This document shows, piece after piece, positions 38,879 through 64,000 of a DNA stretch of 64,000 bases (the stretch's first letter is position 1; each line of letters begins with the position of its first letter). The position numbers and the translations under genes were made by a program. The stretch is from Minisyncoccota bacterium (lineage in GTDB: Bacteria; Patescibacteriota; Minisyncoccia; UBA6257; 2-01-FULL-56-20). The notes beneath the pieces were generated by a model. The model did not search any database. It was given only the letters and a program-made list of their open reading frames with translations, and had not been told where the DNA came from. The stretch spans positions 14,687-78,686 of the forward strand of contig DATKNL010000009.1 in assembly GCA_035541435.1 (NCBI GenBank). The letters are read 5' to 3'.

Positions 38879-39478
38879 ATGTCGCAAGCATCATCGATTT
38901 TCGCGTGGCTCATCGCCTATCGCTACATCGTCGCCTATCCGCTCGCGATCATAGAGGGCCCGATCGTCATGATGGTGTCCGGATTCCTCGTCCGGCTCAA
39001 CTTCTTCGACTTCTGGCCGATCTATCTCACGCTCATCGCCGGCGACCTCACAGGCGACGTCATCTGGTACATGGTCGGCCGCCATGGCGGACGGCCGCTC
39101 ATCGAGAAGTACGGCAAGTGGATCAACATCTCGCAGGAGAACGTCGAGCGCGCCGAGGAGTTCTTCAACGAGCACCAGACGAAGATCCTTTTCATCTCCA
39201 AGCTCACGACCGGATTCGGGTTCGCCATCGCGACGCTCATCGCCGCCGGGGCGACCAAGGTCCCGTTCAGGAAATACATCACGATCAACTTCTTCGGCGA
39301 ATTCATCTGGGCGGGATTCCTCTTCGCGATCGGCTATTTCTTCGGCAACCTCTACACGTGGGTCGACAAGAGCCTGCGCTGGGGCTTCATCACGGGCCTC
39401 GTCGTCGTCGCGGTCCTCGCCGTGTGGGGCTTCGGCAAAGTGATGCGCCGCCGGTTCGGCGCCCCGCCGAGATTCTGA
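38879..39478 (+). CDS. DedA family membrane protein (second paralogue)
   Basis: YRYIVAYPLAIIEGPIVMMVSGFL...LTLIAGDLTGDVIWYMVGRHGGRPLIEKYGKW. TATAAT -10 and GGAAGG RBS directly upstream. Divergent from dsbA. Confidence 0.8.
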   Translation: MSQASSIFAWLIAYRYIVAYPLAIIEGPIVMMVSGFLVRLNFFDFWPIYLTLIAGDLTGDVIWYMVGRHGGRPLIEKYGKWINISQENVERAEEFFNEHQTKILFISKLTTGFGFAIATLIAAGATKVPFRKYITINFFGEFIWAGFLFAIGYFFGNLYTWVDKSLRWGFITGLVVVAVLAVWGFGKVMRRRFGAPPRF

Positions 39479-39493
39479 TCGTTCGCTACGACA

Positions 39494-40219
39494 ATGGATC
39501 CCCTCATATCGATCATCATCCCGACCTTCAACGAGGAGAAGACCATCGAGAAGACCGTCAGGCAGTTCGAGCGGCTGAGGACGCCGCACGAGACGATCGT
39601 TTCGGATTCCATGAGCACCGACCGCACGGTCGAGATCGCGAAGTCGTGTGCCGACACGGTCGCGCTCCTTCCGGCCTCGAAGAAGCCGGGCGTCTCGCCG
39701 GCCCGCAATGACGGCGTGGCCGTCTCGCACGGCCGCTATCTCGTCTTCATCGATTCGGACACGTTCGTCCCCGATCCCGACGCGTTCTTCGCCAAGCTCC
39801 TCGCGCGCTTCGAGCGCGAGCCGCGCCTCGTGGGCATCTCGGTGAAGATCATGATCGTGAGGGAGCTCGCGACCCGCAGCGACCGCGCGGTCTCGTTCCT
39901 CATGAACTTCTGGTTCTGGTTCTCGAACAAGTATTTCAACGCCGGCCTCGCGTCGGGCAAGTTCATCATGGTGAAGGCCGATGCCTTCAGGAAGGCCGGC
40001 GGGTTCGACGAGCGCCTCAAGACCGCCGAGGACGTGGACCTGTTCAGCAAGCTCTCGAAAATCGGTGACGTGCGGACGGCATGGGACCTCGCGGTCTATC
40101 ACGAAGGGCGGCGCTTTCACCACATGGGCGCCTGGATGACGCTGTTCAAATGGATCCACAACGGCATCTCGTACTGGCTCTTCAAGAAGCCGTCGGACAC
40201 CTGGGAACCGGTCCGCTGA
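39494..40219 (+). CDS. Glycosyltransferase family 2
   Basis: ISIIIPTFNEEKTIEKTV..., VFIDSDTFV (DxD), AEDVDLF. Confidence 0.85.
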   Translation: MDPLISIIIPTFNEEKTIEKTVRQFERLRTPHETIVSDSMSTDRTVEIAKSCADTVALLPASKKPGVSPARNDGVAVSHGRYLVFIDSDTFVPDPDAFFAKLLARFEREPRLVGISVKIMIVRELATRSDRAVSFLMNFWFWFSNKYFNAGLASGKFIMVKADAFRKAGGFDERLKTAEDVDLFSKLSKIGDVRTAWDLAVYHEGRRFHHMGAWMTLFKWIHNGISYWLFKKPSDTWEPVR

Positions 40220-40264
40220 GGCGGCCCCGTCCGGCGAGGCGGGGCGACCTGCTACACTAAGGGT

Positions 40265-41221
40265 ATGCGCGCCAAACTGAGTTTCGTCATTCCCGCCTAT
40301 AACGAGGAGCACTACCTGGGCGACTGCCTCGACACGATCATCAAGGAGGTCTCGGGGCGCGACGACGTCGAGATCGTCGTGGCGGACAACAATTCGAGCG
40401 ACCGCACGATCGCCGTCGCCGAGGAGCGCAAGGCGAAGTTCCCGAACCTCGTCGTCGTCAAGGAGACGCGGCGCGGCGCGAACCGCACCCGGCAGACCGG
40501 CTTCGAGTCCTCGCACGGCGAGATCATCGCCTTCATCGACGCCGACACGAAGATGCCGGCGGGATGGGTCGCGACCGTCGAACGCGAGTTCGCGCTCCAT
40601 CCGAAGGTCGTCTGCGTGAGCGGACCGTTCATCTATTACGACCTCTCGCCCGGCATCCGCGCGCTCGTCAAGATGTTCTATGTCTGGGGTTACGTCATCT
40701 ATCTCATCGGGCGCGGGATCTTCCATCGCACGACGATCATCCAGGGCGGCAACTATGCCGTCCGCCGCCAGGCGCTCGAGAAGATCGGCGGGCAGGACGT
40801 GAGCATCGTCTTCTATGGCGACGATACCGACCTTGCCGTGCGCCTGAGCCGCATCGGCATCGTGAAATTCTCGTTCGCCATGCCGATCCTCACCTCGGGC
40901 CGCCGGCTCGCGAAGGAAGGCACGTTCACCATGGGCTTCCGCTATGCGCTCAACAACTTCTGGATGACGGTCTTCCGCCGGCCGTTCACGATGGACGCGA
41001 AGACGGTCCGGTTCGAGAACGGCACCGTATACCAGCCCGAGAACAAAAACCGCGAGCGGCTCATCGCCGTCGTCTTCACCTCGATCGTCGTGCTGTTCTT
41101 CGTGGCCCTCGTGCTGGTCGCCTATTACGTCCTGAAGGCCGGGGCCTTCGGAACGGTCTCGCTCGCGCACCTCTTTTCGGGCGCCCGCGAGTCCGCCGCG
41201 CCGATTTCCAGTTCGCCCTGA
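40265..41221 (+). CDS. Glycosyltransferase family 2 with C-terminal TM
   Basis: LSFVIPAYNEEHYLGDCLDTI, AFIDADTKM (DxD), C-terminal TM IAVVFTSIVVLFFVALVLVAYYVL. Confidence 0.85.
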   Translation: MRAKLSFVIPAYNEEHYLGDCLDTIIKEVSGRDDVEIVVADNNSSDRTIAVAEERKAKFPNLVVVKETRRGANRTRQTGFESSHGEIIAFIDADTKMPAGWVATVEREFALHPKVVCVSGPFIYYDLSPGIRALVKMFYVWGYVIYLIGRGIFHRTTIIQGGNYAVRRQALEKIGGQDVSIVFYGDDTDLAVRLSRIGIVKFSFAMPILTSGRRLAKEGTFTMGFRYALNNFWMTVFRRPFTMDAKTVRFENGTVYQPENKNRERLIAVVFTSIVVLFFVALVLVAYYVLKAGAFGTVSLAHLFSGARESAAPISSSP

Positions 41222-41267
41222 AATGTGATAAAAGGATTGTGCGGCCGCGAAGCCGGCCCGCAGCCCC

Positions 41268-42599
41268 ATGGGTAACCGATTCAAGATATTCCTGTTCGTC
41301 GTCGGGGATGCCGTGGCCCTGTACCTCGGCCTTTTTCTTACGCTCTTCATCCGCTATGGCGCGGATTTTTATGGCGAGTTCCTCGACGCGCACGCGCTCC
41401 CGTTCACCGTCGTCTTCGCGCTCTGGCTCGTCCTGTTCTATGTGTCGGGCCTTTATGACCTGCGCCGGCTGCGCAACAACCTTGATTTCATAAAGACGCT
41501 CTTCCTCGCGGTCGCCGTGAACGCGGTGATCGCCGTGCTGCTCTTCTATCTCGTGCCCGCGTTCGGCATCGCGCCGAAAACCAACCTGCTGATCTTCATC
41601 GCCGTCTTCGCCGTGGTCGAGATCGCCTGGCGGCGCCTGGCGAACCGGCTCATGACGTTCGGCGAGTCCCCGAACCGCGTCCTCGTCATCGGCGACGGCC
41701 CGGCGGTGGACGACGTCACGCGGACGATCCGCGAGAACCCGCAGCTCGGCTATGAGATCAGGGCCGAGCTCGGGGAGGGCGAGGCCTATCGCGCGCCCGA
41801 GGCGCTGAAGGACATCGCCCGGCGCGAACGGGTCACGATGATCGTCGTGCCGCACGCGCTGAAGCGCGACGCCCGGCTCACCCGCACGCTCTATGAGCTG
41901 TTCGGCAGCGGCCTTGCCGTCGTCGACCTCGTCGCGTTCTACGAGACCATCATGCGCAAGGTGCCGCTCCCGGACCTCGAGGAGGCGTGGCTCATCGAGA
42001 ACATCGCCGCGGAAGTCCGGTTCTATGACCAGCTGAAGCGGGCGGCGGAATTCCTAGGCGCCCTCGTCCTCGGCATCGTGCTCCTGCCGCTCGAGCTCCT
42101 GATCGCGCTCCTCGTCCGGCTCACCTCGCGCGGGCCCGTCATCTATAAGCAGGTGCGCGTCGGCGAGAAGGAGCGCCCGTTCACGCTCTATAAGTTCCGG
42201 ACCATGCGCGTCGACGCCGAAAAGGACGGGGCCGTCTGGGCCTCGGTGCGCGATCCGCGCGCGACGCCCATCGGACATTTCCTGAGGCTCTCTCATTTCG
42301 ACGAGCTCCCGCAGCTCTGGAACATCGTGAAGGGCGACATCTCGTTCGTGGGCCCTCGCCCCGAGCGCCCCGAGTTCGTCGAGAAGCTCAAGCGGCAGAT
42401 CCCCTATTACGAGGTGCGCCTGCTCATCAAGCCGGGCGTCACCGGATGGGCGCAGATCAACTATCACAAAGACGCGACGGCCGAAGACGTCATGCAGAAG
42501 CTCGAATACGACATCTATTACCTGAAGAACCGCTCGATCGTGCTCGATTGGGCGATCATCCTGAAGACGCTGAAGGCGATCGTCTCGAATCCCGAATAG
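41268..42599 (+). CDS. Polyprenyl-phosphate sugar phosphotransferase (WbaP/exopolysaccharide priming glycosyltransferase family)
   Basis: Bacterial sugar transferase C-domain: VIYKQVRVGEKERPFTLYKFRTMRVDAE...LRLSHFDELPQLWNIVKGDISFVGPRPERPEFV...GVTGWAQINY. 4-5 N-terminal TM. Confidence 0.85.
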   Translation: MGNRFKIFLFVVGDAVALYLGLFLTLFIRYGADFYGEFLDAHALPFTVVFALWLVLFYVSGLYDLRRLRNNLDFIKTLFLAVAVNAVIAVLLFYLVPAFGIAPKTNLLIFIAVFAVVEIAWRRLANRLMTFGESPNRVLVIGDGPAVDDVTRTIRENPQLGYEIRAELGEGEAYRAPEALKDIARRERVTMIVVPHALKRDARLTRTLYELFGSGLAVVDLVAFYETIMRKVPLPDLEEAWLIENIAAEVRFYDQLKRAAEFLGALVLGIVLLPLELLIALLVRLTSRGPVIYKQVRVGEKERPFTLYKFRTMRVDAEKDGAVWASVRDPRATPIGHFLRLSHFDELPQLWNIVKGDISFVGPRPERPEFVEKLKRQIPYYEVRLLIKPGVTGWAQINYHKDATAEDVMQKLEYDIYYLKNRSIVLDWAIILKTLKAIVSNPE

Positions 42600-42637
42600 G
42601 GCCGCGCGCGGCCCGAAGCCGAACGCAAGCGCGGGCG

Positions 42638-43150
42638 CTATGCAAGCTGCGCGCCGTTCTTGCGCGCCTTGTCGAGAAGCCAGGAGCTTGACTGCACCTT
42701 GCCGCCGCGGCCGAGGTTGAAGATCATCTCGATGCCCAGTTCGCGGCAGGCGTTGATGTCCTTATAGAGCGACGATGCCGGATCGGCGGCGTTCTTCTCG
42801 TCCCGGTCGCCGCCGTTCGCGAAGATCGTCGGCCTGATCTCAGCGAGCATATGGACCACGCTCATGTCCTTCGGATCGGACTCGTGCTTCGTGAGCACCA
42901 CGCGGTCGACGGCGCGGAGCCCCTCGATGACCTCTTTGCGCTCCTGTTCGGACATGAAGGCATAGCCCTTCTTCTTCTTGATCCAGTTGTCGTTGTTCAG
43001 GATGACGACCAGCTCGTCGCCGAGCGCCTTTGCGGCCTCGAACATCCGGACGTGCCCGATATGGATCGGATCGAACCCGCCGCTCACCGCGACGACGACC
43101 TTCTTGCGACCGTCACTGCTGACGCTTCCCTCTTCTTTATTGCTGTGCAT
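42638..43150 (-). CDS. Cytidylyltransferase (TagD / glycerol-3-phosphate cytidylyltransferase-like, RfaE-II family)
   Basis: VVVAVSGGFDPIHIGHVRMFEAAKALGDELVVILNND matches TagD ([33 protein letters not shown]). Confidence 0.75.
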   Translation of the reverse strand: MHSNKEEGSVSSDGRKKVVVAVSGGFDPIHIGHVRMFEAAKALGDELVVILNNDNWIKKKKGYAFMSEQERKEVIEGLRAVDRVVLTKHESDPKDMSVVHMLAEIRPTIFANGGDRDEKNAADPASSLYKDINACRELGIEMIFNLGRGGKVQSSSWLLDKARKNGAQLA

Positions 43151-43340: not shown

Positions 43341-45530
43341 TTATGGCGGGCATCCGGACGGGATATGCACAGGAGCGGTTCCGGTCCCGTCGGGTTCGAC
43401 CGTGACGCCGTCGACCGCGAGGACGGGCACGGCCTGCAGCGAAAGGACGGCGGTCGACGTGGGATCCGCGAGCGCCACGTCGCTCCAGGTGCTCGTCGCG
43501 ACCGCGACCGCGCGGCTGTCATAGGTCTTCACCGCAACCTTCCGCTTCGCGGAGGATTTCGCCGTGGACGATCCGGCGCTCCCCGTCCCGATGACGACCC
43601 GCAGCGTCCCCGACGCCGGCGCCGTAACGACCGTCGTCGAGCCGAACGCCTCATATGAGCTGCCAGGAATGCCGTTCTCGATATCGCCCGCGGCGTTCGG
43701 TCCCGTGTGGTTGCCGTTCCCGTCGTACAGGTCGGCCGACGCGCCGCCCGTCACGGTGACCTCGGTCATGACCGGCCGCGGTGCGCCCCGCCCCTCGAGG
43801 CAGTCCTCGCTTGAAACCGACAAGCCGAGCGGCGGGAGCGCAAGCGAGGGAAAAGATCCGTCCACGATCGCCTGGAAAAGCATGATTGTCCGCGCATCGC
43901 GGATCAGCCCGTCGTGATCGATGCCGTTCTCGCCATAGAGGGTGAAAATGTTCGTGTAGCCGTCCGCATGGTCCATCGCCGAAAGGACCGGCACCGTCCC
44001 GTCACCGTTCGCGCGGCCGACGTCGACCGAGCCGTCGTCGTGAACGACGTATTGGTCGACGGTCGGATCCTGGCAGCCCACGAGGTTATAGACGCGCGGT
44101 CCGGATGGCAGCGGGCCGCCATCGATCGTCTCGTGTTCGCCGTCGGCGCGCGCGAGAAGGGCGGGGTTGCGCGCATCGATCGGATCGGCCGTGAGCAGCG
44201 CGTTCGTTTCGTCGAAATCGAGGGCGAGCGTCGTCTCGTTGCCGGCATCGTCTTCGCCTTCACGAACGACATAGGGACCATGCACGCCGACGAAGCGTCG
44301 TGAGGGCAGCAGATCATAGATGCCCGGCATGTTCTGCGTGATCGCTTTCACTTCTCGCGGATTGAGCAGGCTTACCGGGCCGATGCCGAACCCAAGGTCG
44401 TCACCATACTGCAGCGCCTTGAACGTCGCCGGCGCACCGAGCTGCGGAACGCCGACCAGGATGAGCGAATTAATGAGCGCGGCACCGGCGGATCCCGAAC
44501 GGACAAGAAAGTCCTTCACGGCGAGGCCGCCCATGCTGTGGGCGATGACGTTCACCTTGCCGTCGGGCGACTGCGCGGCGGCCCGTTCGATGACCGAGCC
44601 GACGACGGCCGACGAGCTCGCGACGCCCATGCGCCAGTCATAAGGAGCGACGAACAGGTCGCGCCCCTCGACGAAGCCTTCGTTTTCGAACGTATCGATG
44701 AGCGTCCCGTAAATCCGTTCGTCGAAGGGAATGGGAATCAGGAGCCGGTCGTACGTGCCGCTCACGGACCGAATGATGTCGCCCGCCGCAAGCTCGCGGC
44801 CCGGAACCTGCGTGCCGTCAGGCGCGAGCGCAAGCGCGTCGAGATAGTCGTCGTTCGGCGAATTCGCCATCTCGCTCGCCGCCGGCCAGAACTCCCGTCC
44901 CGCCGCAGCCGTGCCCGTCGCGCCGACAAGCGCGGACCCCATGACGCCGGGAACGATGACGAGCGGCTCGTCGAACGTCCCGCTCGCGATGATGAAGGGA
45001 TAGAACGGATAATAGCCCTCGCTCCGGCCGATGCCGGGAAGGAACGTGTTCGTCATCGCGATCCCCTGCCCGTTGACGCCCTGCAGGATGACGCTGCTGT
45101 TCTGATAGTCCTGCACCGTGACCAGCCGGTAATAATGGTCGGGATTCACGCGGATCGACAGATTTGAAAACGTGACCGTCTGTAAAATGTCGGTGAAGAC
45201 CGCGCCGTCGGCAACCGGGAACGTCCGCACGAGCTGCGCGTAACCGGCATCTGAAAATTCCTGAAGCGTCACCTGCGTCGCGGCATATTCAGGCGCGTTG
45301 ACCTTGCCTTCGAGCGTGATCGAACTGATGGTTCCCGCCGTTCCGCGCCCGAGATCGTACCAATTGTCGCCATACCAGCTGTCCTTCGACGCGGCCTGGT
45401 CGGCCGGCTGATTAAAGAGCAGCGCCGCGTGAGCGGGGCGCGCGGCCGCGAGCATGCAGAGCGCAAGCGCGATCAGGGCACCGGTCCGGATGCGCGAGTC
45501 GTATTTAAATCGAGCGATGGAAAAACGCAT
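43341..45530 (-). CDS. Secreted alpha/beta-hydrolase lipase-like protein (LCAT/PGAP1-like), 729 aa
   Basis: Signal peptide plus nucleophile elbow AHSMGGLA; C-terminal Ser/Thr/Ala-rich beta domain. Confidence 0.65.
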   Translation of the reverse strand: MRFSIARFKYDSRIRTGALIALALCMLAAARPAHAALLFNQPADQAASKDSWYGDNWYDLGRGTAGTISSITLEGKVNAPEYAATQVTLQEFSDAGYAQLVRTFPVADGAVFTDILQTVTFSNLSIRVNPDHYYRLVTVQDYQNSSVILQGVNGQGIAMTNTFLPGIGRSEGYYPFYPFIIASGTFDEPLVIVPGVMGSALVGATGTAAAGREFWPAASEMANSPNDDYLDALALAPDGTQVPGRELAAGDIIRSVSGTYDRLLIPIPFDERIYGTLIDTFENEGFVEGRDLFVAPYDWRMGVASSSAVVGSVIERAAAQSPDGKVNVIAHSMGGLAVKDFLVRSGSAGAALINSLILVGVPQLGAPATFKALQYGDDLGFGIGPVSLLNPREVKAITQNMPGIYDLLPSRRFVGVHGPYVVREGEDDAGNETTLALDFDETNALLTADPIDARNPALLARADGEHETIDGGPLPSGPRVYNLVGCQDPTVDQYVVHDDGSVDVGRANGDGTVPVLSAMDHADGYTNIFTLYGENGIDHDGLIRDARTIMLFQAIVDGSFPSLALPPLGLSVSSEDCLEGRGAPRPVMTEVTVTGGASADLYDGNGNHTGPNAAGDIENGIPGSSYEAFGSTTVVTAPASGTLRVVIGTGSAGSSTAKSSAKRKVAVKTYDSRAVAVATSTWSDVALADPTSTAVLSLQAVPVLAVDGVTVEPDGTGTAPVHIPSGCPP

Positions 45531-45592
45531 GGGTGCAGCCTAGCACCCCGTCGATTAAAAGAATCTAAAATTGCAGGTATAATGACGGATAT

Positions 45593-46513
45593 ATGAGAAT
45601 CATCGTAACCGGCGGGGCCGGATTCATCGGCTCGCACATCGTCGACGACTGCATCGCGAAGGGCCATTCGGTCGCCGTCATCGACAACCTGTCCACCGGA
45701 TCTCGCCGCAACCTCAACCGCAAAGCCCGGTTTCATAAGGCCGACATCAGGGACCGCGCCGCCATCGACCGCGTCTTCGCCAAGGAACGCCCCGAGGCCG
45801 TGAACCATCATGCGGCGCTCATCGAAGTGACGAAGTCGATGCGCGACCCGCACGGGACATTCGAGGCGAACGTCCTCGGAACGGCAAACGTGCTTGCCGC
45901 CTTCGCGGCGCACGGCCGCGGCGCCCGCCGCCGATTCGTTTTCGCGTCGACCGGTGGCGCGATCTATGGCGAACCGAAAAAGCTTCCCGCGAACGAAGCG
46001 ACGCCGATCGCGCCGCTCTCGCCCTACGGACTTTCGAAATACCTCGCCGAAGAGACGATCCGGTTCTATGCGCGCCTGCATGGGTTTTCCCATGTCATCC
46101 TCCGGTACACGAACGTCTATGGCCCGCGCCAGAACCCGAACGGCGAAGCGGGCGTCGTCGCGATCTTCACGCGTCTCATGAAAGCGGGACTACGGCCGAC
46201 CATCTTCGGCGACGGCAGCAAATCGCGCGACTACGTGCACGTGAGCGATGTCGTGCGCGCAAACGCCGCGGCGCTCCGCGCGGCATCGGACTTCACCGTG
46301 AACATCGGGACGGGTTCAGGCACGACCGACCGCATGATCTTCGACGCGATCGCCCGGGCAACCGGTTTCGCCAAGGAGCCGGTCTTCGCGCCCTATCGCA
46401 CGGGCGAGGTGTACCGCATCTCGCTCGACGCCCGCCTGGCGCGCCGCCGCCTCGGATGGAAGCCAACCGTCGCACTCGACCGCGGCATCAAAACCGTCGT
46501 CGACTCGCTCTGA
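45593..46513 (+). CDS. NAD-dependent epimerase/dehydratase (UDP-hexose 4-epimerase-like SDR)
   Basis: Rossmann motif IIVTGGAGFIGSH, catalytic YGLSK (YxxxK), RYTNVYGPRQ. Confidence 0.85.
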   Translation: MRIIVTGGAGFIGSHIVDDCIAKGHSVAVIDNLSTGSRRNLNRKARFHKADIRDRAAIDRVFAKERPEAVNHHAALIEVTKSMRDPHGTFEANVLGTANVLAAFAAHGRGARRRFVFASTGGAIYGEPKKLPANEATPIAPLSPYGLSKYLAEETIRFYARLHGFSHVILRYTNVYGPRQNPNGEAGVVAIFTRLMKAGLRPTIFGDGSKSRDYVHVSDVVRANAAALRAASDFTVNIGTGSGTTDRMIFDAIARATGFAKEPVFAPYRTGEVYRISLDARLARRRLGWKPTVALDRGIKTVVDSL

Positions 46514-46515
46514 TC

Positions 46516-48902: not shown

Positions 48903-48975
48903 AGGGATAGCGTACCATCCGTCCCCGGCCCGCGACAATACCGGACCGGACCAAGCCCGACCTCATCTGCCATTC

Positions 48976-56909: not shown

Positions 56910-57911
56910 TTAGGCCGCGCGGGCGACGCGGTCAACGGTCCGCGCCTCGTCGCGCAGCACGTATGCCTTCGCGCCGTAGCGCATCCTAAACCGCAGGAAG
57001 GCGAGCCTGAACCCGAGCCGTTCGCCGAACGCTCGAAGCGGCAGGATGACGTGCCTGAATGCCCACGAACCCGGCAGCGAGCAGATATAAAGGATGGCCG
57101 TCCCGAGCGATGGATGGACGGCGAACGACCGCGCGAGCGCCTGCCGGCCTTCGCTAACCTTGCCAGCAAGCACGAGATAGACGCCGCGGTTGCGCCACAG
57201 GCGGCCCATGTTGGCCCGTCCGGCAGCGGTCCGCGGCATGATCGGCTCCCATTTCGCGATCATCGCCGCCGCCTTCACGGCAAGCTTCTCGGCGGTCGCA
57301 AGGTTCGTCACCTGCCCGCTGTGGGAATAATAGATGGCCACCGGCATGTCGATATAGGGAACCTTGATCGTGCCGTCATGGATCAGCGGCTGCAGGCGAA
57401 AGACGTGGTCGACATCCTCGATGATGTTCCGGTCCTCGTCATAGGGGCCGTAGTCGACGAAGATCGCCCGGCTGAGCAACACCGAACTCGGCGTCGAGCC
57501 GCCGATGCCGTTCACCCGTCCGGTCTGCCACGACATGCGCCACGTATGCCCGCGCACGACGTCGGCCCGCGCGCGCACGGCCTCGGAACCCAGCAGGTCG
57601 AGCGCCTCGGGCATGAGCGCGTCGTCGGAATCAAGCGCAAGGATCCAATCCCCTTTGGCATAGGCGATGCCCGTATTGCGCGCCGCCGCAACGCCGGCGT
57701 TCTTCTGATGGAAATAGCGCACGGCAAGCTCGGGGTGCGCATCGGCGAACTGCCGCACGACCGTTGCGGTCTCGTCGGTCGAGCCGTCGTCGACGACGAT
57801 GAGTTCGAGCGGCAGGTTCGTCTGCGCGGCGACGCTCGGCAGCGATACGCGCTTCAGGAAGTCGGCGCGGTTATAGGTCGGGATGATGACGCTAATGCGC
57901 AGCGATTCCAT
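56910..57911 (-). CDS. Glycosyltransferase family 2
   Basis: ISVIIPTYNRADFLKRV...IVVDDGSTDET...LALDSDD. Start at internal ATG 57911. Confidence 0.8.
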   Translation of the reverse strand: MESLRISVIIPTYNRADFLKRVSLPSVAAQTNLPLELIVVDDGSTDETATVVRQFADAHPELAVRYFHQKNAGVAAARNTGIAYAKGDWILALDSDDALMPEALDLLGSEAVRARADVVRGHTWRMSWQTGRVNGIGGSTPSSVLLSRAIFVDYGPYDEDRNIIEDVDHVFRLQPLIHDGTIKVPYIDMPVAIYYSHSGQVTNLATAEKLAVKAAAMIAKWEPIMPRTAAGRANMGRLWRNRGVYLVLAGKVSEGRQALARSFAVHPSLGTAILYICSLPGSWAFRHVILPLRAFGERLGFRLAFLRFRMRYGAKAYVLRDEARTVDRVARAA

Positions 57912-59073
57912 GGTTGTTATAGCTCGTCCACGCCTCGGTGATTTCGCGGGCGACCCGTTCCCACGACAGGCCTTCGGCCGTCGCGCGGCCGTGCTTCGCG
58001 AGCTCGGCGCAGAGCTTCGGATCGTCGACCAGACGCCGCATCGCGCGCGCCATCGCGTGAACGTCCGTCGGATCGTCGAGCAGCAGCGAATCATATCCGT
58101 CCTTCATGCGTTCCGACGCGCCGGCGTAGCGGGGCCCCGAAGTGATCGTCGGCAGTCCGGCCGCGAGGGCCTCGGCGATCACGAGCCCGAACGGCTCGTC
58201 GAGCGTCGGGAAGAGGAATGCGTCGGCGGCGGCGCACCAGTCGGCGAAATCGCTCCGCGGACCGATGAAGAACACGCGGTCGCCCACGCCGCGCTCGTCC
58301 GCAAGGCGCCGGAACGCCCGGTTGTCGGCCTTGCCGGCGACGACGAGTTTCGCGTGCGGCGCTCCGAGTTCGGCGAGCGCCTCGATCGCAAAGTTCAGTC
58401 CCTTGCGCTTGAACTCGTTGCCTGAAAAGAGAAAGACGAAGTCGCCGTCCGCGAACTTCATCTCGCTGCGGATCCGCGCACGGACGGCGGGATTCGGCGC
58501 GAACTCATGCGCATTCACGCCGCTATGCACGACAACCACCCGTTCGTCGGAAACGCCGTAGAGGGCGACGATCTCACGCTTCACCTTGTTCGCGATCGCG
58601 ATCACGCGCCTCGCGCCGCGCCTCACCGCCCAGCCCTCGACGAGGATGATCGCGAGGTTGATCGGCCGCAGCTTGCGGGCAATGCGCCGCAGGTAGCCCT
58701 TCGCGGTCTTCGGCTCGCGCGCGTTCGTCACGATGACCGCCTGCCGGTGCACGCTCTGCGCAATCATGAAATCCGTATTAAAGGAATACAGGCCGTTCGA
58801 TATGAAAAGCCCGTCGGGATGTTCGCGCTTGAACGCGCGATAGATGCGCGACGCCTTCGCCGCCTTCGCGAGATGGGTGAGCGCGGGAACGCGCCAGTCC
58901 GTCCTGATCGGGATCACGCGCTCGAGGTTGTCGGTCGGATAGCCGACGCTTGAGGCGACGATCGAAACGCGGTGCCCCGCCGCCACAAGCGCCTGGGCGA
59001 GCTCGACGCTGTAGCGTTCGATGCCGCCGAGCTTGTCATAGGTTCCCGCCGCGATGCAGACGTCGTAGCCCAT
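57892..59073 (-). CDS. Glycosyltransferase family 1/4 (GT-B fold)
   Basis: C-terminal EPFGLVIAEALAAGLPTITS (E-x7-E motif region); 393 aa. Confidence 0.85.
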   Translation of the reverse strand: MGYDVCIAAGTYDKLGGIERYSVELAQALVAAGHRVSIVASSVGYPTDNLERVIPIRTDWRVPALTHLAKAAKASRIYRAFKREHPDGLFISNGLYSFNTDFMIAQSVHRQAVIVTNAREPKTAKGYLRRIARKLRPINLAIILVEGWAVRRGARRVIAIANKVKREIVALYGVSDERVVVVHSGVNAHEFAPNPAVRARIRSEMKFADGDFVFLFSGNEFKRKGLNFAIEALAELGAPHAKLVVAGKADNRAFRRLADERGVGDRVFFIGPRSDFADWCAAADAFLFPTLDEPFGLVIAEALAAGLPTITSGPRYAGASERMKDGYDSLLLDDPTDVHAMARAMRRLVDDPKLCAELAKHGRATAEGLSWERVAREITEAWTSYNNHGIAAH

Positions 59074-59090
59074 GGATTCCAGTTTAGCAT

Positions 59091-59975
59091 TTACGGGCGC
59101 ATGAAGACGAAGTTGTCATAGCCGAGATTGCCGGCCTGATCGGGGCGTTCAAGAAGCTCGGGATCGCCCTCCTTGTTGAGGCCGTACAGCCGGTAGCCTT
59201 CGCGCGCGAGCAGTCCGATCGTCCCGCCGTGGGCCTCCGCGCCGTCGTCGCTCTTCCAGAGTTCCATCAGAATGACCGGATGTGCCTGCGCGATCATCGC
59301 GCGGGCACCCGCGAGCACCTCCTCCTCGAAGCCCTCGACATCGATTTTCATGATCGTCGGCGGACGATGGCTCTTCGCGTAATCGTCCAGGGTCGTGGTC
59401 TTCGCAATAATTTTCTTAAAGCGGCTGTCGGGACGGAACCCGCTCATGCCTGACATCCGCGGATCGGCATAATAGTCGCGCTCCTCCCCCATCACATCCG
59501 CTACGGCGATCAGGTTCGCAGTCATGTTCGGACGATCGGCATTCTTAACGAGCACCTTAAAGGTGCACGGGTTCGCCTCGAAACTGTGAATCTCGCCTGC
59601 CGTGACGAATTCCTTCGCGAGCGCGGAATAGAATCCGATGTGTGCACCGACGTCATAGAACACGGAATCGTCCTTCAGATTCTTCACGAGGAATTTCGTA
59701 AGCGGCAGCTCGAATCCCGGCAGCGCGCCGAAGAACACGACCGCGATATCCTCGGGAAGGTCGATATAAATGTCCTTCCCCCAGAACGCCCGCGCCTTGG
59801 TCACCATCGGAAACAGCCAGGTTACATAATAGAGTCCCTTGAGGCCATAGCGGCGAAGCGCGTACCAGAGCCGCCGCGACCGAGCCGCAACGGTGCCGCC
59901 ACCCGGCAGATAGGCATCAAAGGCGGCGATCTCGGGCTCTTTTGCTTTAAGAAGATCGAGGCAGGCTTCCCTCAT
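59091..59975 (-). CDS. FkbM-family methyltransferase
   Basis: FYDVGAHIGFYSALA (SAM motif I) and IMKIDVEGFEEEVLAGA (FkbM signature). Start at internal ATG 59975. Confidence 0.75.
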   Translation of the reverse strand: MREACLDLLKAKEPEIAAFDAYLPGGGTVAARSRRLWYALRRYGLKGLYYVTWLFPMVTKARAFWGKDIYIDLPEDIAVVFFGALPGFELPLTKFLVKNLKDDSVFYDVGAHIGFYSALAKEFVTAGEIHSFEANPCTFKVLVKNADRPNMTANLIAVADVMGEERDYYADPRMSGMSGFRPDSRFKKIIAKTTTLDDYAKSHRPPTIMKIDVEGFEEEVLAGARAMIAQAHPVILMELWKSDDGAEAHGGTIGLLAREGYRLYGLNKEGDPELLERPDQAGNLGYDNFVFMRP

Positions 59976-61252
59976 AGGAATGTGGGCTCGAACGGTTCGT
60001 TGCGGACGGGGTGCCGCTTCAGATAATCGAGCAGGCCGTCGAACTCGCGGATTACGTCGTCCGCCTCGACGGCCGCGATGCACGGGGCGGGCTCGCCGAC
60101 GGGCACGGTCGCGGCGCAGCGCCAATCGTCATAGAGGCAGCCGACATCCTTATAGACCCAGCGGTTCACGCCGCGGCGGCCATAGAGGGAATTCATGCCG
60201 AGGTGCGCGCCCGCGGGAATGCAGACCGAAGGGACGCCGAGGGCGACCGCGACGTGAACCGGTCCCGTATCGTTCGTGATCACGCTGTGCGCGTTCGCGA
60301 CGACCACCGATGATTCCGCAAGCGAGAACGCGCCGCAGCCGTTCACGAGCGGCACCGAGGCCAGTTCGGCGATGCGCCGGCCGAGGACGGCTTCGTCGGG
60401 AGAGCCGATGGTCGCGAGGCCGAATCCGCGCGCATGCACGGCGGCGGCAACGGCGGCGAACTTCTCGACCTGCCAGCGCTTCATGGGATCGCTCGCGCCG
60501 GGAACCAGCACGACATAGCGGCCTTTCGCAAGCCCCATTTCGCGCATCTTGCGCGAGGCGCCGTCGACCGCCGCGGGATCGATATGGAAATTGAGCGAAA
60601 ACTCGCGGGCGGGCGCACCGCCCGTCACGGCCATGCGGATCGCGTCATGATGCAGGAGCGCGTTCGCAGGATGGCCGCCATGCCGGTCGAAATCCCGATC
60701 GATCGACGGCACCGTCACCGCATAGCGCGGAAAGACGTGCCGGCGGGCATATCGGTCGAAACGCGCCGATTCGGGGTTGCGCAGCTCGACCCACGGCCCC
60801 TCGTATCCCACCACGCGTTGCGCGCCGAGCGAAGCGGCCACGACCCTGCTCGTCTTCTCTTTGATGCCAAGGCACTGGTTGACGACTTCGCTGAAACCGA
60901 TTTCGCGCAGCATGTTGATCGAACGCAGCGCGTACAACGGGTTCGTGCCGAACTTCGACGAATCGATCTTGATCACCTCGTCAACCGTGTCGCCGAATGC
61001 CGCCGGCGAAAGTCCCGACTGGCGCGCGATGGCAAGATGGATTTTCTTCCCGCCGAAATGCCGCCGATACTGCGCAAGGACCGACGTCGCGATGATGACG
61101 TCGCCGATGCCGTGAAAGTCGACGATGAGCACCCGGTCCTCCCATCCTTCCTTGTTGACCTTCGACCCGAACAGCGCGAGCAGAACGCGCGCGGCCCATC
61201 CGGCGAGGGTCCACTTGATGAAAAATTTCATTTTCTCGGTTGTCGTATCCAT
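59972..61252 (-). CDS. Glycosyltransferase family 9 (heptosyltransferase)
   Basis: VLIVDFHGIGDVIIATSVLAQYRRHF and the C-terminal NDTGPVHVAVALGVPSVCI GT9 signature. Confidence 0.85.
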   Translation of the reverse strand: MDTTTEKMKFFIKWTLAGWAARVLLALFGSKVNKEGWEDRVLIVDFHGIGDVIIATSVLAQYRRHFGGKKIHLAIARQSGLSPAAFGDTVDEVIKIDSSKFGTNPLYALRSINMLREIGFSEVVNQCLGIKEKTSRVVAASLGAQRVVGYEGPWVELRNPESARFDRYARRHVFPRYAVTVPSIDRDFDRHGGHPANALLHHDAIRMAVTGGAPAREFSLNFHIDPAAVDGASRKMREMGLAKGRYVVLVPGASDPMKRWQVEKFAAVAAAVHARGFGLATIGSPDEAVLGRRIAELASVPLVNGCGAFSLAESSVVVANAHSVITNDTGPVHVAVALGVPSVCIPAGAHLGMNSLYGRRGVNRWVYKDVGCLYDDWRCAATVPVGEPAPCIAAVEADDVIREFDGLLDYLKRHPVRNEPFEPTFL

Positions 61253-61261
61253 GAAAGTTGC

Positions 61262-62623
61262 TTATGCGTCCATGTAAGCCGCAAGGAACGGCTCGGTGCG
61301 CTCAGGGTGCGTGTGGAGGTAGTCGTCGAGCCTATGATAGTCCGCGACGACCTCGGCGGCCGTTACGGCTTCGAGGCACGGCGCGGGCGATCCCTGCGGG
61401 ACCGTGAGGGCGCACCGGGCGTCGTCATAGAGGCATCCGATATCCTTATATATCCACCGGTTCACCGCCTTGCGGCCATAGAGCGAATTGAAGGCGATGT
61501 GCCCTGCCGTCGCGATGCAGATCGTCGGAACGCCGAGGGCCACCGCGATATGCACCGGCCCCGTGTCGTTCGTGATGAGCATGTGCGCGTGCCTGATGAC
61601 CGCGGCCGATTCCATCAGCGTAACCGCTCCCGCGGTATCGATCAACGGGAACGGCAGGTGCTTCCCAAACTCCCGGCTGTAGGGCTGCTGCGCAGGCGAG
61701 CCGATGACGAGGACATCGAAGCCCCGCGCGTGCACGGCCTTCGCGACCTCGGCGAACTTGCCGATGTTCCATTGCCGGGCGGGATCGACGCACGCGACGG
61801 CGAACGCGACATAGCGTCCGGGTTTCGTCCCCCATTGCCCGATCTTCTCGAGCACGGCCGCATCCGCTGCCGGGTCGATGCCGAACGCCGTCGACGGATC
61901 GCGCGGACCGCCGTGGCCGTGAAGGGCGTCGGCGAGCGCAAGATGGTGCTGGATCGCTGTCTTCGGATGCGTTCCCTGCTTCATGAAATCCTTGTCGATC
62001 GATTCGACGAGGCGGGTGTAGCGGCCGAAGATGCGCGAGCGCGAAAACCGCACGAAAGGCGCCGCTGTCAGGTCGAGCAGCTCGATGCCCGGGCCTTCGT
62101 AGCCGACAACCGTTTCCGCCTTGAGCGAAACGGCGATGAGCTTGCTCGTGAGGTCCTTGAGGCCGGCCGCATCGTTCACGACCGTGCGGAAGCCGATCCG
62201 GCGCAGCCGGTTGACCGTCGCGACCTGATATCCCGGGCTCGATTGGAACCGCACGCCGTCGAAGACCACGAGGTCGTCGACCAGGTCGCCGAACATGGCC
62301 TTCGTCATGCCGCCGTGCTTCGTGACGAGCAGGAATATTTTCTTCGATGCGAACTTCGCACGGTACTGCCGCAGGGCGGGCGTCGCCATGATCACGTCGC
62401 CGATGCCGCCTGCGCCGATGATCAGCACCCGGTCGTCCCAGCCGTCCCGGTTCACGGGGGCGCCGAAAAGGTTGAGGGCCGCACCTGCGATGCCGCTCAT
62501 CAGGTCCCAGCGGAGAAAGAATTTCACGCGCTCCTCGCGTTCGCGTCCCCGAGGACCCGATCCGAAACCAAGATCGAGGACTTTCTTGAGGGAGGACGTG
62601 ATCGGCATGGGTTCGAAATCCAT
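61262..62623 (-). CDS. Glycosyltransferase family 9 (heptosyltransferase), paralogue
   Basis: VLIIGAGGIGDVIMATPALRQYRAKF and NDTGPVHIAVALGVPTICI. Start codon uncertain (M13 chosen). Confidence 0.85.
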   Translation of the reverse strand: MDFEPMPITSSLKKVLDLGFGSGPRGREREERVKFFLRWDLMSGIAGAALNLFGAPVNRDGWDDRVLIIGAGGIGDVIMATPALRQYRAKFASKKIFLLVTKHGGMTKAMFGDLVDDLVVFDGVRFQSSPGYQVATVNRLRRIGFRTVVNDAAGLKDLTSKLIAVSLKAETVVGYEGPGIELLDLTAAPFVRFSRSRIFGRYTRLVESIDKDFMKQGTHPKTAIQHHLALADALHGHGGPRDPSTAFGIDPAADAAVLEKIGQWGTKPGRYVAFAVACVDPARQWNIGKFAEVAKAVHARGFDVLVIGSPAQQPYSREFGKHLPFPLIDTAGAVTLMESAAVIRHAHMLITNDTGPVHIAVALGVPTICIATAGHIAFNSLYGRKAVNRWIYKDIGCLYDDARCALTVPQGSPAPCLEAVTAAEVVADYHRLDDYLHTHPERTEPFLAAYMDA

Positions 62624-62705
62624 ACCATCGTACCACGGCCCCCGAGGCCCGGAAAGCAAGGAATTGCGGCTTGCCCCCGCCCTCCGAACGGCCTACAATG
62701 ACGCT

Positions 62706-63080
62706 ATGGAACGGGACCGCGGAAGCCGCGTGATCGGCACCGGCATCGACATCGTCGAAATGGAACGGGTGCGCCGCATCGGCGCCCCCGACCGCTTCGC
62801 GGAATTCTTCCTTACGCCTGCCGAGCTCGACACCTATCGCGTGTCGCCCGACCCGGTCGGCTTCATCGCCTCGCGATTCGCGCTGAAGGAAGCCGTCATC
62901 AAGGCGTTCCCGGGGCTCCTCAAGCCGCACGATTTCGAAATTGTGAAGGACGGCGCGAAGCCCGTGCTGCGGTTCCTCGCCGGCGAGCGCGCGGCGAAGT
63001 ATCGCGCGACGGTGAGCCTCGCCCACTCCGAACTCTTCGCCGCCGGCTGTGCCGTCATCATGTCGCGCCGGTCGGCCTAG
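62706..63080 (+). CDS. acpS: Holo-[acyl-carrier-protein] synthase (4'-phosphopantetheinyl transferase)
   Basis: VIGTGIDIVEMERVRRI...FALKEAVIKA, 124 aa. Start at internal ATG 62706 of track ORF 62295..63080. Confidence 0.85.
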   Translation: MERDRGSRVIGTGIDIVEMERVRRIGAPDRFAEFFLTPAELDTYRVSPDPVGFIASRFALKEAVIKAFPGLLKPHDFEIVKDGAKPVLRFLAGERAAKYRATVSLAHSELFAAGCAVIMSRRSA

Positions 63081-63088
63081 CGCCCATC

Positions 63089-64000
63089 ATGAATCCGCTC
63101 GACTATCTGAGATCGGCAGCGCGCTTCGCGGACCTCGAGCCCGCGTCTTTCGCGCGCGCGGTCCGCGTGAACCTTATCACGAACTTCACGGACGACATCC
63201 TGAAGAACATCTTCGTGGGCGTCCACCTGCAACACGACGTCTATCCCGACATCCGCAGGGCCCCGTACAAGCAGTATCATCTCGAGCTCAAAAACCCCGC
63301 GAGTGCGCTCTATACCGACAAGCCCGACTTCACGTTCGTCCTCTTCGACGCGAACCCGTTCAAGGAATCGGCCTTCGGCCTGTCGCCCGAGCACTTCGAC
63401 GACGTGCTGGCCGACATCGAGGCCTATGCCGCGCGGGCCGGCGGGACGGTCGTCGTGAGCCACTTCATCACGTCCTATCAGAGCTCCTATCAGAACCTCG
63501 TCCGCGAGAACCCGCTCTTCGCGCGCATCGAGGGCTATAACCACGCGATCGACGAACTCGCCGCGCGCGTGAAGAACGTGAAGGCGTTCGACACGAACCG
63601 CATCGTCCACGTCGTCGGCGAGCGGCACGTCTTCGACCTGCGCGGCCTCTATGCCTTCGACATCCCCTTCACGCACGAGTTCATGGCGATCCTTGCCGAG
63701 GAATGGTTCGCCTATGTGCGCGCGGCGACGGGCGGCCTTAAGAAGTGCATCGTGCTCGACCTCGACAACACGCTCTGGGGCGGCGTCGTGGGCGAGCTTG
63801 GCGCGACCGGCATCGCGCTCGGCCCCGACTATCCGGGCAACGCCTTCGTCGGATTCCAGCGCGCCCTGCTCGACTTCCACAACCGCGGCATGATCCTCGC
63901 CGTAAACAGCAAGAACAATCCCGAGGACGTTGCCGAAGTCTTTGCGAAGAACCCGCACATGGTGCTCAAGGAGAAGCACTTCGCCGACATCCGTACGAAC
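63089..64000 (+). CDS. HAD-superfamily IIIC / FkbH-like domain protein (partial; continues beyond window end)
   Basis: Frame-2 ORF open to the window edge, hence not in the track. Contains KKCIVLDLDNTLWGGVVGELG, the FkbH/HAD-IIIC DxDxT motif, and ...ILAVNSKNNPEDV. Confidence 0.6.
   Translation, partial: MNPLDYLRSAARFADLEPASFARAVRVNLITNFTDDILKNIFVGVHLQHDVYPDIRRAPYKQYHLELKNPASALYTDKPDFTFVLFDANPFKESAFGLSPEHFDDVLADIEAYAARAGGTVVVSHFITSYQSSYQNLVRENPLFARIEGYNHAIDELAARVKNVKAFDTNRIVHVVGERHVFDLRGLYAFDIPFTHEFMAILAEEWFAYVRAATGGLKKCIVLDLDNTLWGGVVGELGATGIALGPDYPGNAFVGFQRALLDFHNRGMILAVNSKNNPEDVAEVFAKNPHMVLKEKHFADIRTN

Follow-up and report, generated by a model that had tools for sequence, protein, structure and literature searches.

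We analysed a 64-kb window of a bacterial contig (DATKNL010000009.1, positions 14,687 to 78,686), in which the part from 38,879 to 64,000 is a variable, Wzx-type, polyprenyl-phosphate-linked surface-glycan locus of 24 genes at a conserved site flanked by DsbA and TrxB genes. Between 48.0 and 55.9 kb of the window this locus holds a cassette of the type that activates heptose as a nucleoside diphosphate (NDP) sugar. On balance we think it probable that the cassette encodes a non-orthologous NDP-heptose pathway in which a protein with the fold of phosphomannose isomerase (PMI) takes the place of GmhA and a DUF89 and/or HAD-IA phosphatase that of GmhB, the product feeding GT9-family glycosyltransferases that act on a lipid-linked glycan. 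Taken whole, the locus adds a new member to a familiar class; its sugar-activation cassette appears to be a new variant of the NDP-heptose pathway.

Coding frames were chosen by the GC content of third codon positions and checked with Pfam and NCBIfam profiles, and start positions were refined from independent gene calls on an identical 6-kb Logan contig. All 24 genes named in an earlier sequence-only reading of this DNA were present in the order it gave and their families held in Pfam, NCBIfam and structure prediction. The genes lie in at least nine transcription blocks with alternating strands, and chance cannot account for some 24 glycan-related genes in a row.

A heptose-type cassette without GmhA and GmhB

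The synthesis of NDP-heptose from sedoheptulose-7-phosphate takes an isomerase, a kinase, a phosphatase and a nucleotidyltransferase (PMC11573728). The cassette holds a combined kinase/nucleotidyltransferase, a second nucleotidyltransferase and an epimerase. The first of these is an HldE-like bifunctional protein (53502-55016, + strand) with a PfkB sugar kinase and a nucleotidyltransferase domain (Pfam PfkB and CTP_transf_like) in the correct architecture, which scored 272 bits with the HldE model NF008454 (cut-off 521) and fell below the cut-offs of both domain models. The epimerase is an HldD-like short-chain dehydrogenase/reductase (SDR) resembling NDP-heptose 6-epimerases (48003-48938, - strand), for which TIGR02197 heptose_epim was by far the best family with 240 bits (cut-off 274.6) and GalE the next with 108. 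The stand-alone nucleotidyltransferase (50740-51246, + strand) is of the RfaE-II heptose-1-phosphate type, with 158 bits to TIGR02199 (cut-off 181.5), an HxGH motif and a C-terminal LVPGKSTT, an STT motif in which position 5 is K instead of R. As it is R at this position that marks CTP/UTP promiscuity (PMC11573728), nucleotide promiscuity is not predicted for this enzyme by the STT rule.

The isomerase and phosphatase of the classical pathway were not seen. Using the E. coli sequences as phmmer queries against all open reading frames of the window, no SIS-type GmhA was found at E<1e-5 and only a spurious match (E 0.26) at E<1, and no Pfam scan of the window returned a SIS domain. E. coli GmhB, a HAD-IIIA phosphatase, had no match in the window even at E<1. 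A gene previously called simply as HAD (49938-50663, + strand) is indeed of that superfamily, its class however being HAD-IA and beta-phosphoglucomutase-like (Pfam HAD_2 97 bits, TIGR02009 91 bits) and not that of GmhB (HAD-IIIA 19.5 bits against a cut-off of 44.6); it is a possible alternative or second sugar-phosphate phosphatase. Two further genes, for a cupin and a DUF89 protein, had been taken as bystanders. The bicupin fold of the cupin stood, and the two are in our reading the likeliest isomerase and phosphatase. The DUF89/ARMT1 protein (54991-55899, + strand; Pfam ARMT1-like_dom 135 bits) belongs to a family of metal-dependent sugar-phosphate phosphatases and is proposed to act as a heptose-1,7-bisphosphate 7-phosphatase. 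We found no open-access paper linking heptose with DUF89, nor one linking a sedoheptulose-7-phosphate isomerase with a cupin or PMI-like protein.

In the scheme that we propose every substrate, product and direction of chemistry is predicted; what was observed are the genes present, their folds and conserved residues, the fusions, the neighbourhoods and the taxonomy. The PMI-fold bicupin would isomerise sedoheptulose-7-phosphate to D-glycero-D-manno-heptose-7-phosphate, a one-carbon-longer version of the conversion of fructose-6-phosphate to mannose-6-phosphate, after which the PfkB domain of the HldE-like protein would phosphorylate O1 and the DUF89/ARMT1 phosphatase, possibly with the HAD-IA enzyme, would take off the 7-phosphate. 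The C-terminal domain of the HldE-like protein and/or the stand-alone RfaE-II enzyme would then make NDP-heptose, the HldD-like SDR would epimerise it, and two GT9 enzymes, perhaps also a third GT9-like one, would transfer the heptose.

Fold and conserved residues of the PMI-like family

Two proteins of the locus, of 330 and 395 amino acids, matched no Pfam or NCBIfam family and were identified through AlphaFold2 (AF2) models and Foldseek alone. The larger one (52293-53480, + strand) is the bicupin proposed as sedoheptulose-7-phosphate isomerase from its fold, its conserved residues, and the fusions and neighbourhoods of its family. It was modelled with a pLDDT of 94.6 and a pTM of 0.92, and its top 17 Foldseek matches in the PDB were all type-I phosphomannose isomerases (lowest E 6e-16, target-normalised TM 0.73-0.75, 10-15% identity). 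At the level of sequence, phmmer against the PDB gave E 0.22 to 1zx5.

In an alignment of 30 members of the PMI-like family residues K109, H134, H136, K151, E153, H223 and E232 were invariant. Matched by eye and not through structural superposition, these correspond to residues in equivalent motifs of ManA: K109 in WPLTKILD to K86 in LPFLFKVL, H134 and H136 in PCHLHS to Q97 and H99 in SIQVHP, K151 and E153 in GKLEAYF to K132 and E134 in HKPELVF, and H223 and E232 in VVHA...FEI to H255 and E264 in TPHA...LEV. The spacing from His to Glu in the last pair is 9 residues in ManA and in the PMI-like family alike, and the matched ManA positions are those mutated in the Salmonella PMI structures among the fold matches. 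PMI converts a ketose phosphate to a manno-configured aldose phosphate, and GmhA does the same on a sugar one carbon longer. The 395-amino-acid protein is thus likely a sedoheptulose-7-phosphate isomerase in place of GmhA.

The family comprises 639 representative clusters at E <= 0.001, none of its members carries a Pfam domain, and members from bacteria, archaea, the CPR (Candidate Phyla Radiation) and eukaryotes are 40-52% identical. Eukaryotic members come from three sponges and Pelomyxa (43-49% identity; P0047, P0071, P0098, P0030). In the sponge Sycon ciliatum the gene (L095, OZ025896.1) spans 12 kb, contains introns and has typical animal-gene neighbours, and is therefore native and not contamination. 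No member of the family was found on viral contigs.

Distribution, neighbourhoods and fusions of the cassette

In order to place the PMI-like gene in its genomic context we surveyed one genome per GTDB species, which gave 80 loci, 27 with close orthologues (39-54% identity) and 53 with members of a distant subfamily (23-28% identity), and searched the proteins of the window against all open reading frames within 10 kb on either side. Among the close loci an HldE/RfaE-type nucleotidyltransferase was present in 19/27, a PfkB kinase in 16/27, DUF89 in 15/27, GT9 in 9/27 and the HldD-like SDR in 4/27, while GmhA and GmhB were each found in 0/27. Four of the eight close loci that lack the nucleotidyltransferase have little or no flank, three (L030, L036, L037) being short contigs and one (L022) having its match at the contig start with the upstream side absent. 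Neither the nucleotidyltransferase nor DUF89 occurred in any of the 53 distant loci, hence the link to heptose genes is specific to the close subfamily. The distant subfamily (L038-L090) is common in Planctomycetota, Hydrogenedentota, Armatimonadota, Spirochaetota and Chloroflexota and never has heptose-pathway neighbours.

The PMI-like domain also occurs fused to its partners. On the coordinates of the Pfam and PMI-like domains, an 896-amino-acid protein (P0140) combines PfkB, nucleotidyltransferase and PMI-like domains and one of 859 (P0141) ARMT1, nucleotidyltransferase and PMI-like domains; shorter combinations are ARMT1 with PMI-like (P0142 and P0034, 700 and 681 amino acids), PMI-like with PfkB (P0145, 845) and nucleotidyltransferase with PMI-like (P0003, P0008 and P0010, 568-589). 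Equivalent stop-free fused reading frames were seen in L011-L018. Each of the other three pathway activities is therefore covalently joined to a PMI-like domain somewhere. In a separate protein of 681 amino acids (P0159) the PMI-like domain is fused to a domain of the phosphoribulokinase/uridine-kinase family where others have PfkB, a hint that the kinase step may exist in yet another version.

Full cassettes with GT9 and an HldD-like SDR were found on a distant bacterial contig (L004) and in archaea, including an Aenigmatarchaeota locus (L007) and several metagenome-assembled genomes labelled Woesearchaeota or Methanosarcinales; HldD-like homologues lie in the cassettes of L004, L015 and L018. 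Transaldolase interconverts fructose-6-phosphate and sedoheptulose-7-phosphate, and a transaldolase gene adjoins the PMI-like gene in 5/5 CPR loci with usable flanks, inside or directly beside the cassette in four of them and 1.4 kb off in L027. At the Kaiserbacteria locus L033 a homologue of the HAD-IA enzyme sits between the RfaE-II and PMI-like genes, where other cassettes have DUF89, so that the phosphatase step may be filled by either enzyme. We propose, with somewhat less than even confidence, that the PMI-fold family and DUF89/ARMT1 make up a second, ancient NDP-heptose route found in CPR, in DPANN and other archaea and in assorted bacteria, its isomerase being native to some eukaryotes (sponges, Pelomyxa).

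Other genes of the locus were considered as parts of the cassette and rejected. Homologues of the 330-amino-acid GT9-like protein occur in glycan loci without heptose genes and in 0/27 cassette loci, and a 351-amino-acid protein without assigned function that adjoins the L004 cassette proved unrelated to it and is not its counterpart. The NUDIX hydrolase (49030-49740, - strand; Pfam NUDIX 30 bits), the FkbM methyltransferase and the TagD-like gene are absent from all related cassettes, and the NUDIX enzyme, a putative nucleotide-sugar proof-reader in the earlier reading, is best regarded as a lineage-specific accessory.

Organism, envelope type and genomic site

The window has a G+C content of about 63%, which is high for CPR. 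Among the matches listed for its GroEL the named neighbours, at 79-88% identity, were all Paceibacterota, Patescibacteria, Minisyncoccia or Colwellbacteria, and on this protein sequence, which gives support at the level of the contig, the contig is assigned to Candidatus Paceibacterota (CPR/Patescibacteria). The contigs of the listed neighbours reach about 0.9 Mb at most. The rest of the window is in keeping with CPR, containing genes for type IV pili and for nucleotide salvage, and one for a secreted protein of 1,172 amino acids with a peptidoglycan-binding domain. CPR have been assigned, along with Chloroflexi, to a monoderm clade (bioRxiv 10.1101/2021.05.31.446380), and Pfam scans of the 64-kb window returned no lpx, kds or waaA genes. 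Because of this taxonomy, the monoderm placement and the gene content of the locus, the GT9 enzymes are not builders of a lipopolysaccharide (LPS) inner core; an LPS-core reading was rejected on the same grounds, and the earlier proposal of a non-LPS, methylated surface glycan with heptose-type chemistry is supported. ADP-heptose genes have already been reported in Paceibacteria (PMC9166423), and that the lineage has heptose genes is in itself no novelty.

On a related contig (L096), to which a homologue of the GT9-like protein (46% identity) led, the same genomic site is occupied by another Wzx-type glycan locus. The two loci share the phosphoglycosyl transferase, an SDR and the DsbA and TrxB flank and differ in their sugar genes, L096 lacking the heptose cassette and having an NTP-transferase, RGP, a C-methyltransferase and a Wzy_C/TPR protein. 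The region thus resembles O-antigen or capsule loci in its behaviour, with a fixed site and swappable content.

Elsewhere in the window, the 1,172-amino-acid protein (14212-17730, - strand) has an N-terminal hydrophobic segment and a PG_binding_1 domain, is otherwise unannotated and is a candidate large wall-anchored surface protein. Three regions on the - strand (3-725, 7470-8924 and 10139-11008) encode two type IV pilus components, PilM and a 484-amino-acid protein with an N-terminal pilin methylation motif and NHL repeats, together with a second DedA/VTT-domain protein. The stretch 25900-30200 is of lower G+C (0.50 at 28-30 kb, where the flanks have about 0.63), adjoins a tRNA-Ser gene (30181-30268) and contains a RibD_C-domain gene, a Ser_hydrolase gene and several open reading frames without a Pfam match, features suggestive of a small island gained by horizontal transfer at a tRNA gene. 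An Rfam scan of the window gave only three tRNAs.

Assembly of the glycan

The locus opens with a DedA/VTT membrane protein (38879-39478, + strand; Pfam VTT_dom 64 bits, three hydrophobic segments), likely an undecaprenyl-phosphate recycling transporter similar to UptA, its best NCBIfam match (70 bits, below cut-off). It is followed on the same strand by a soluble GT2 glycosyltransferase (39494-40219; Pfam Glycos_transf_2 81 bits) and a second GT2 (40265-41221; 94 bits) with two C-terminal hydrophobic segments (at amino acids 263 and 282), a topology that we infer to be GtrB/ArnC-like. GtrA, which the earlier reading had named alongside DedA, was not seen. Next comes an initiating polyprenyl-phosphate sugar-1-phosphate transferase of the large WbaP/WcaJ type (41268-42599, + strand; five hydrophobic segments), with 216 bits to Pfam Bac_transf and 362 bits to TIGR03025, above the cut-off of 296. 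Further on, a GalE-like SDR nucleotide-sugar epimerase/dehydratase (45593-46513, + strand; Pfam Epimerase 217 bits, TIGR01179 galE 199 bits against a cut-off of 262) precedes a Wzx-type MOP flippase (46456-48027, + strand) with 13 hydrophobic segments and 115 bits to Polysacc_synt (cut-off 28). The initiating transferase and the flippase support the Wzx-dependent, lipid-linked pathway that had been read from the sequence.

Two genes on the - strand lie between these. One encodes a nucleotidyltransferase of 170 amino acids with the cytidylyltransferase fold (42638-43150; Pfam CTP_transf_like, HxGH motif) that had been called TagD-like; the fold stood and the TagD specificity found no specific support, rfaE_dom_II and TagD giving 74 and 56 bits, both far below cut-off. 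The other encodes a secreted or membrane-anchored protein of 729 amino acids (43341-45530) with an LCAT (lipase/acyltransferase-like) domain (Pfam 67 bits), an N-terminal hydrophobic segment and no NCBIfam match. A fourth gene with the cytidylyltransferase fold lies far from the glycan locus (3557-4153, + strand), adjoins a dCMP-deaminase-domain gene and scored 85 bits with the HldE nucleotidyltransferase domain, above the score of the TagD-like gene in the locus.

The divergent GT9-like protein of 330 amino acids (51243-52235, - strand), a predicted GT-B glycosyltransferase modelled with a pLDDT of 92.7, has as its top Foldseek matches the GT9 structure 3tov (1.4e-8), followed by WaaF (1psw), TibC and WaaC, in agreement with its earlier naming. 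Its homologues close runs of GT2-GT2-GT4 genes in other glycan loci. In the window the - strand beyond the cassette encodes a GT2 with a C-terminal TPR region (55896-56900; Glycos_transf_2 116 bits, weak TPR matches), a GT2 whose start MESLRISV... was picked from the translation (56910-57911; 109 bits), a GT4 (57892-59073; Pfam Glycos_transf_1 and Glyco_transf_4) and an FkbM-family methyltransferase of 294 amino acids (59091-59975; Pfam Methyltransf_21, TIGR01444 83 bits against a cut-off of 38) with a probable role in sugar O-methylation. These are followed by the two GT9 genes (59972-61252, and 61262-62623 encoding 453 amino acids), also on the - strand, which are paralogues (450 bits to each other) and belong to the family by their scores of 72 and 71 bits with Glyco_transf_9 (PF01075; threshold 22). 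They are not orthologues of WaaC or WaaF: the LPS heptosyltransferase models matched only their C-terminal half, far below the WaaC, WaaF and WaaQ equivalog cut-offs (TIGR02195 65 bits against 135 for the first of the two). The bounds of the second GT9 and of the FkbM gene, like those of the two genes that follow, are taken from the Logan contig.

Taken together, the phosphoglycosyl transferase would start an oligosaccharide on the lipid carrier, the GT2, GT4 and GT9-type transferases would lengthen it and the FkbM enzyme would probably O-methylate it, Wzx would flip the lipid-linked glycan and the DedA/UptA-like protein would recycle the carrier.

The AcpS-FkbH module

The window ends with an AcpS-type holo-acyl carrier protein synthase, a phosphopantetheinyl transferase (62706-63080, + strand; Pfam ACPS, TIGR00516 60.3 bits against a cut-off of 59.8), and the first 304 or so amino acids of an FkbH-like HAD-IIIC protein (63089-64000, + strand), cut by the window end (TIGR01681 HAD-IIIC 41.8 bits against 35.75). 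With the FkbH model TIGR01686 it scored 75 bits (cut-off 146.65), only the first 82 of 323 model positions lying inside the window. In two relatives (L008 and L009, 56-59% identity) the order is AcpS, FkbH-like (564-580 amino acids), acyl carrier protein (ACP), MaoC, SDR and MBOAT. The ACP, directly after the FkbH-like gene, has 78 amino acids, a PP-binding domain and a ...PSWDSLN... motif, MaoC is a hot-dog dehydratase, the SDR is of ketoreductase or enoyl-reductase type and MBOAT is a membrane-bound O-acyltransferase. By analogy we see an even chance that ACP, MaoC, SDR and MBOAT genes also follow FkbH in the genome of the window, and it is in this qualified form, the window ending inside FkbH, that the earlier suggestion of an ACP-tethered glyceryl or acyl decoration stands.

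FkbH takes a glyceryl unit from 1,3-bisphosphoglycerate and loads a stand-alone ACP with it (PMC7489565). The FkbH-like protein here would likewise load a glycerate-derived unit onto an ACP, and the module would O-acylate the exported glycan with that group by a Dlt-like logic. An MBOAT paired with a carrier protein is reminiscent of the Dlt system and its D-alanylation; neither a DltA-type ligase nor DltD was identified. The group would be glyceryl, or lactyl if the dehydratase and reductase act on glyceryl-ACP, and the MaoC and SDR pair suggests to us processing of the glyceryl unit, possibly to lactyl. We found no open-access paper linking FkbH with polysaccharide loci. In both relatives (L008 13288-16080, L009 3182-5855) the MBOAT gene adjoins one for a protein of about 390-450 amino acids without a Pfam match; if related to each other, these proteins could be an extracytoplasmic acyltransferase partner with a DltD- or AlgJ-like role.

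Alternative readings of the cassette

Several observations weigh against an NDP-heptose pathway of the kind proposed. The HldE-, HldD- and RfaE-II-like proteins all fall below their NCBIfam equivalog cut-offs, the nucleotidyltransferase domain of the HldE-like protein has the HxGH and no STT motif, so the sugar may not be a canonical heptose, and the presence of two nucleotidyltransferase domains per cassette is without explanation. An hhalign comparison of the PMI-like protein with E. coli ManA was not significant (probability 0.5%), leaving the relationship at the level of the fold alone, and the residue correspondence between them was drawn by eye. The searches for GmhA and GmhB covered 64 kb of a genome of about 1 Mb, elsewhere in which the genes could lie, and in E. 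coli gmhA and gmhB are dispersed and unlinked to hldE. Nor is the PMI-like family exclusively associated with heptose, as close orthologues in Limnochordia lie in catabolic sugar-kinase/aldolase clusters. The one in Carboxydochorda subterranea (L003, CP141615.1, 3186412-3207653), 49% identical, is found with four FGGY kinases, a fucose-isomerase-like gene, a DeoC-type aldolase, a HAD phosphatase and a LacI regulator and without heptose-synthesis genes; there the enzyme may serve a catabolic route, possibly for heptose or another rare sugar, and such a context fits the role of a sugar-phosphate isomerase. With regard to the glycan, profiles and hydrophobic segments revealed no Wzy-like polytopic protein, Wzy_C/ligase or Wzz chain-length regulator between 38.9 and 64 kb. 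Wzy_C is located at the far end of the glycan loci of relatives, and a wzy gene may lie past position 64,000 or the product may be an unpolymerised oligosaccharide. Finally, the genes upstream of the AcpS-FkbH module in L008 and L009 are those of different glycan loci (GT10, C-methyltransferase, sulfatase) without heptose genes, and the module is therefore portable.

The same isomerase-kinase-phosphatase-nucleotidyltransferase logic might activate another sugar for transfer by the GT9-type enzymes, either a beta-hexose such as mannose (from fructose-6-phosphate through mannose-6-phosphate, mannose-1,6-bisphosphate and beta-mannose-1-phosphate to NDP-mannose) or some other derivative of a heptose or ketose. 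The fold matches of the bicupin are true mannose-6-phosphate isomerases, transaldolase also handles fructose-6-phosphate, the GT9 enzymes are far from LPS heptosyltransferases, and the scores below cut-off and the missing STT motif point the same way. However, of the named families those scoring best for kinase, nucleotidyltransferases and epimerase are in every case specific to heptose, with a wide margin for the SDR (240 against 108 bits), a C6 epimerase requires a secondary C6 hydroxyl and hence a heptose, GT9 is present in 9/27 cassettes, and the ordinary GDP-mannose route has no need of such machinery; we consider another sugar unlikely. A canonical pathway with GmhA and GmhB encoded elsewhere, the PMI-like and DUF89 proteins then serving in mannose feeding, NDP-sugar modification or the repair of damaged sugar phosphates, would be in keeping with the extent of the search, with the dispersed heptose genes of E. 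coli, with the annotation of DUF89 proteins as damage-control phosphatases and with the ADP-heptose pathway reported as 'encoded' in Paceibacteria (PMC9166423). It is difficult to reconcile with the fusion of the PMI-like domain to kinase, nucleotidyltransferase and DUF89 in many genomes, with the absence of GmhA and GmhB within 10 kb at all 27 loci when the alternative partners occur at 15-19 of them, with the presence of exactly the four activities required and with the minimal genomes of CPR and DPANN, and we regard it as quite doubtful.

Two further readings concern the product of the locus. ADP-heptose is used for septacidin in a Gram-positive (PMC11461863) and FkbH, AcpS and FkbM are typical of secondary-metabolite clusters, so that a small molecule, namely a heptose-containing glycoside similar to septacidin or hygromycin B with an FkbH-derived unit, could be imagined. 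We hold this to be very improbable given a phosphoglycosyl transferase above its curated cut-off, Wzx, the DedA/UptA-like protein and eight or nine glycosyltransferases, the absence from the region of polyketide synthase (PKS), non-ribosomal peptide synthetase and FabH-like genes, the Wzx/Wzy_C glycan locus at the same site in a related genome and the MBOAT that follows FkbH in relatives. It is from the LPS core that GT9 enzymes and genes of the HldE/HldD type are best known, and yet we give almost no credence to an ordinary inner-core (waa-type) locus of a diderm, since the contig comes from CPR, which fall in a monoderm clade, there are no lpx, kds or waaA genes in the 64 kb, the GT9 scores are far below those for WaaC, WaaF and WaaQ, and a phosphoglycosyl transferase and Wzx form the basis of the locus.

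Comparison with known systems and significance

The pathway proposed here, with a PMI-fold isomerase and a DUF89 or HAD-IA phosphatase, shares with the E. coli ADP-L-glycero-beta-D-manno-heptose pathway (GmhA, HldE, GmhB, HldD) the same four-step logic followed by an SDR epimerase and GT9 enzymes, and its kinase/nucleotidyltransferase, stand-alone nucleotidyltransferase and epimerase are homologous to HldE, RfaE-II and HldD. It differs in having the PMI-fold bicupin and DUF89 in the places of GmhA and GmhB, in having two nucleotidyltransferase domains per cassette and in its acceptor, a Wzx-flipped lipid-linked glycan in a monoderm instead of lipid A-Kdo. The PMI-like protein shares with type-I phosphomannose isomerases (ManA/PMI; 1pmi, 3h1w, 1qwr, 1zx5) a predicted bicupin fold and Lys, His and Glu residues in equivalent motifs, and the same chemistry is expected, from a ketose phosphate to the 2-epi (manno) aldose phosphate; its first metal ligand, however, is His where ManA has Gln, and its partners are enzymes of heptose and not of GDP-mannose metabolism. 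A comparison with the S-layer glycan of Aneurinibacillus thermoaerophilus had been suggested, which likewise concerns heptose in a non-LPS surface glycan of a monoderm. That organism reportedly makes GDP-D-glycero-alpha-D-manno-heptose by way of GmhA, the GHMP kinase HddA, GmhB and the GDP-forming HddC, an NTP-transferase. The parallel does not extend to the enzymes, as the locus uses HldE-type ones and Pfam revealed in it no GHMP kinase or PF00483 NTP_transferase, and likewise no GmhA or GmhB. The FkbH/ACP systems of polyketide synthesis have in common with the locus an FkbH-like HAD-IIIC protein and a dedicated phosphopantetheinyl transferase, and with its relatives a stand-alone ACP and MBOAT; in contrast to those systems no PKS, FabH-like or methoxymalonyl gene is present and the module is attached to glycan loci.

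Tang et al. 2024 (summarised in PMC11573728 and PMC11461863) described multidomain enzymes of NDP-heptose biosynthesis with isomerase, kinase and nucleotidyltransferase activities ('HBEs') from across kingdoms. As far as these summaries go, they share with the proteins described here the fusion of kinase, nucleotidyltransferase and isomerase and an occurrence in bacteria and archaea, the PMI-like family extending to eukaryotes; the STT motif is common to them and to the stand-alone nucleotidyltransferase, which has K at position 5, and the fusions P0140 and P0141 differ in using PMI-like and ARMT1/DUF89 domains as isomerase and phosphatase. According to the same summaries Tang et al. located the isomerase, kinase and phosphatase by homology to known enzymes (PMC11573728, PMC11461863), and the PMI-like and DUF89 families would therefore not be recovered. 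A commentary describes the homologous NDP-heptose phosphatase as "absent in viruses and eukaryotes" (PMC11461863), and a non-homologous phosphatase could explain the gap as it is stated there.

If the cassette reading is true, a role would be assigned to a widespread unannotated PMI-like family and to a subset of DUF89 phosphatases, two large families filed under function unknown or damage control which would thereby gain a concrete metabolic role. NDP-heptoses are building blocks of the envelope and potent agonists of the vertebrate innate immune receptor ALPK1, and current surveys of NDP-heptose producers rely on homology to GmhA, HldE and GmhB. Should PMI-like and DUF89 proteins substitute for GmhA and GmhB, such surveys would under-count producers, notably in CPR and DPANN and possibly among some animals and protists. 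A second route would moreover fill the phosphatase gap reported for non-bacterial producers and would make heptose-decorated envelopes a recurrent feature of ultra-small episymbiotic prokaryotes. For a genome of about 1 Mb a variable glycan locus of 25 kb is a large investment, and this speaks for the cell surface, decorated with heptose, O-methyl and probably also O-acyl groups, as a key interface with hosts and phages.

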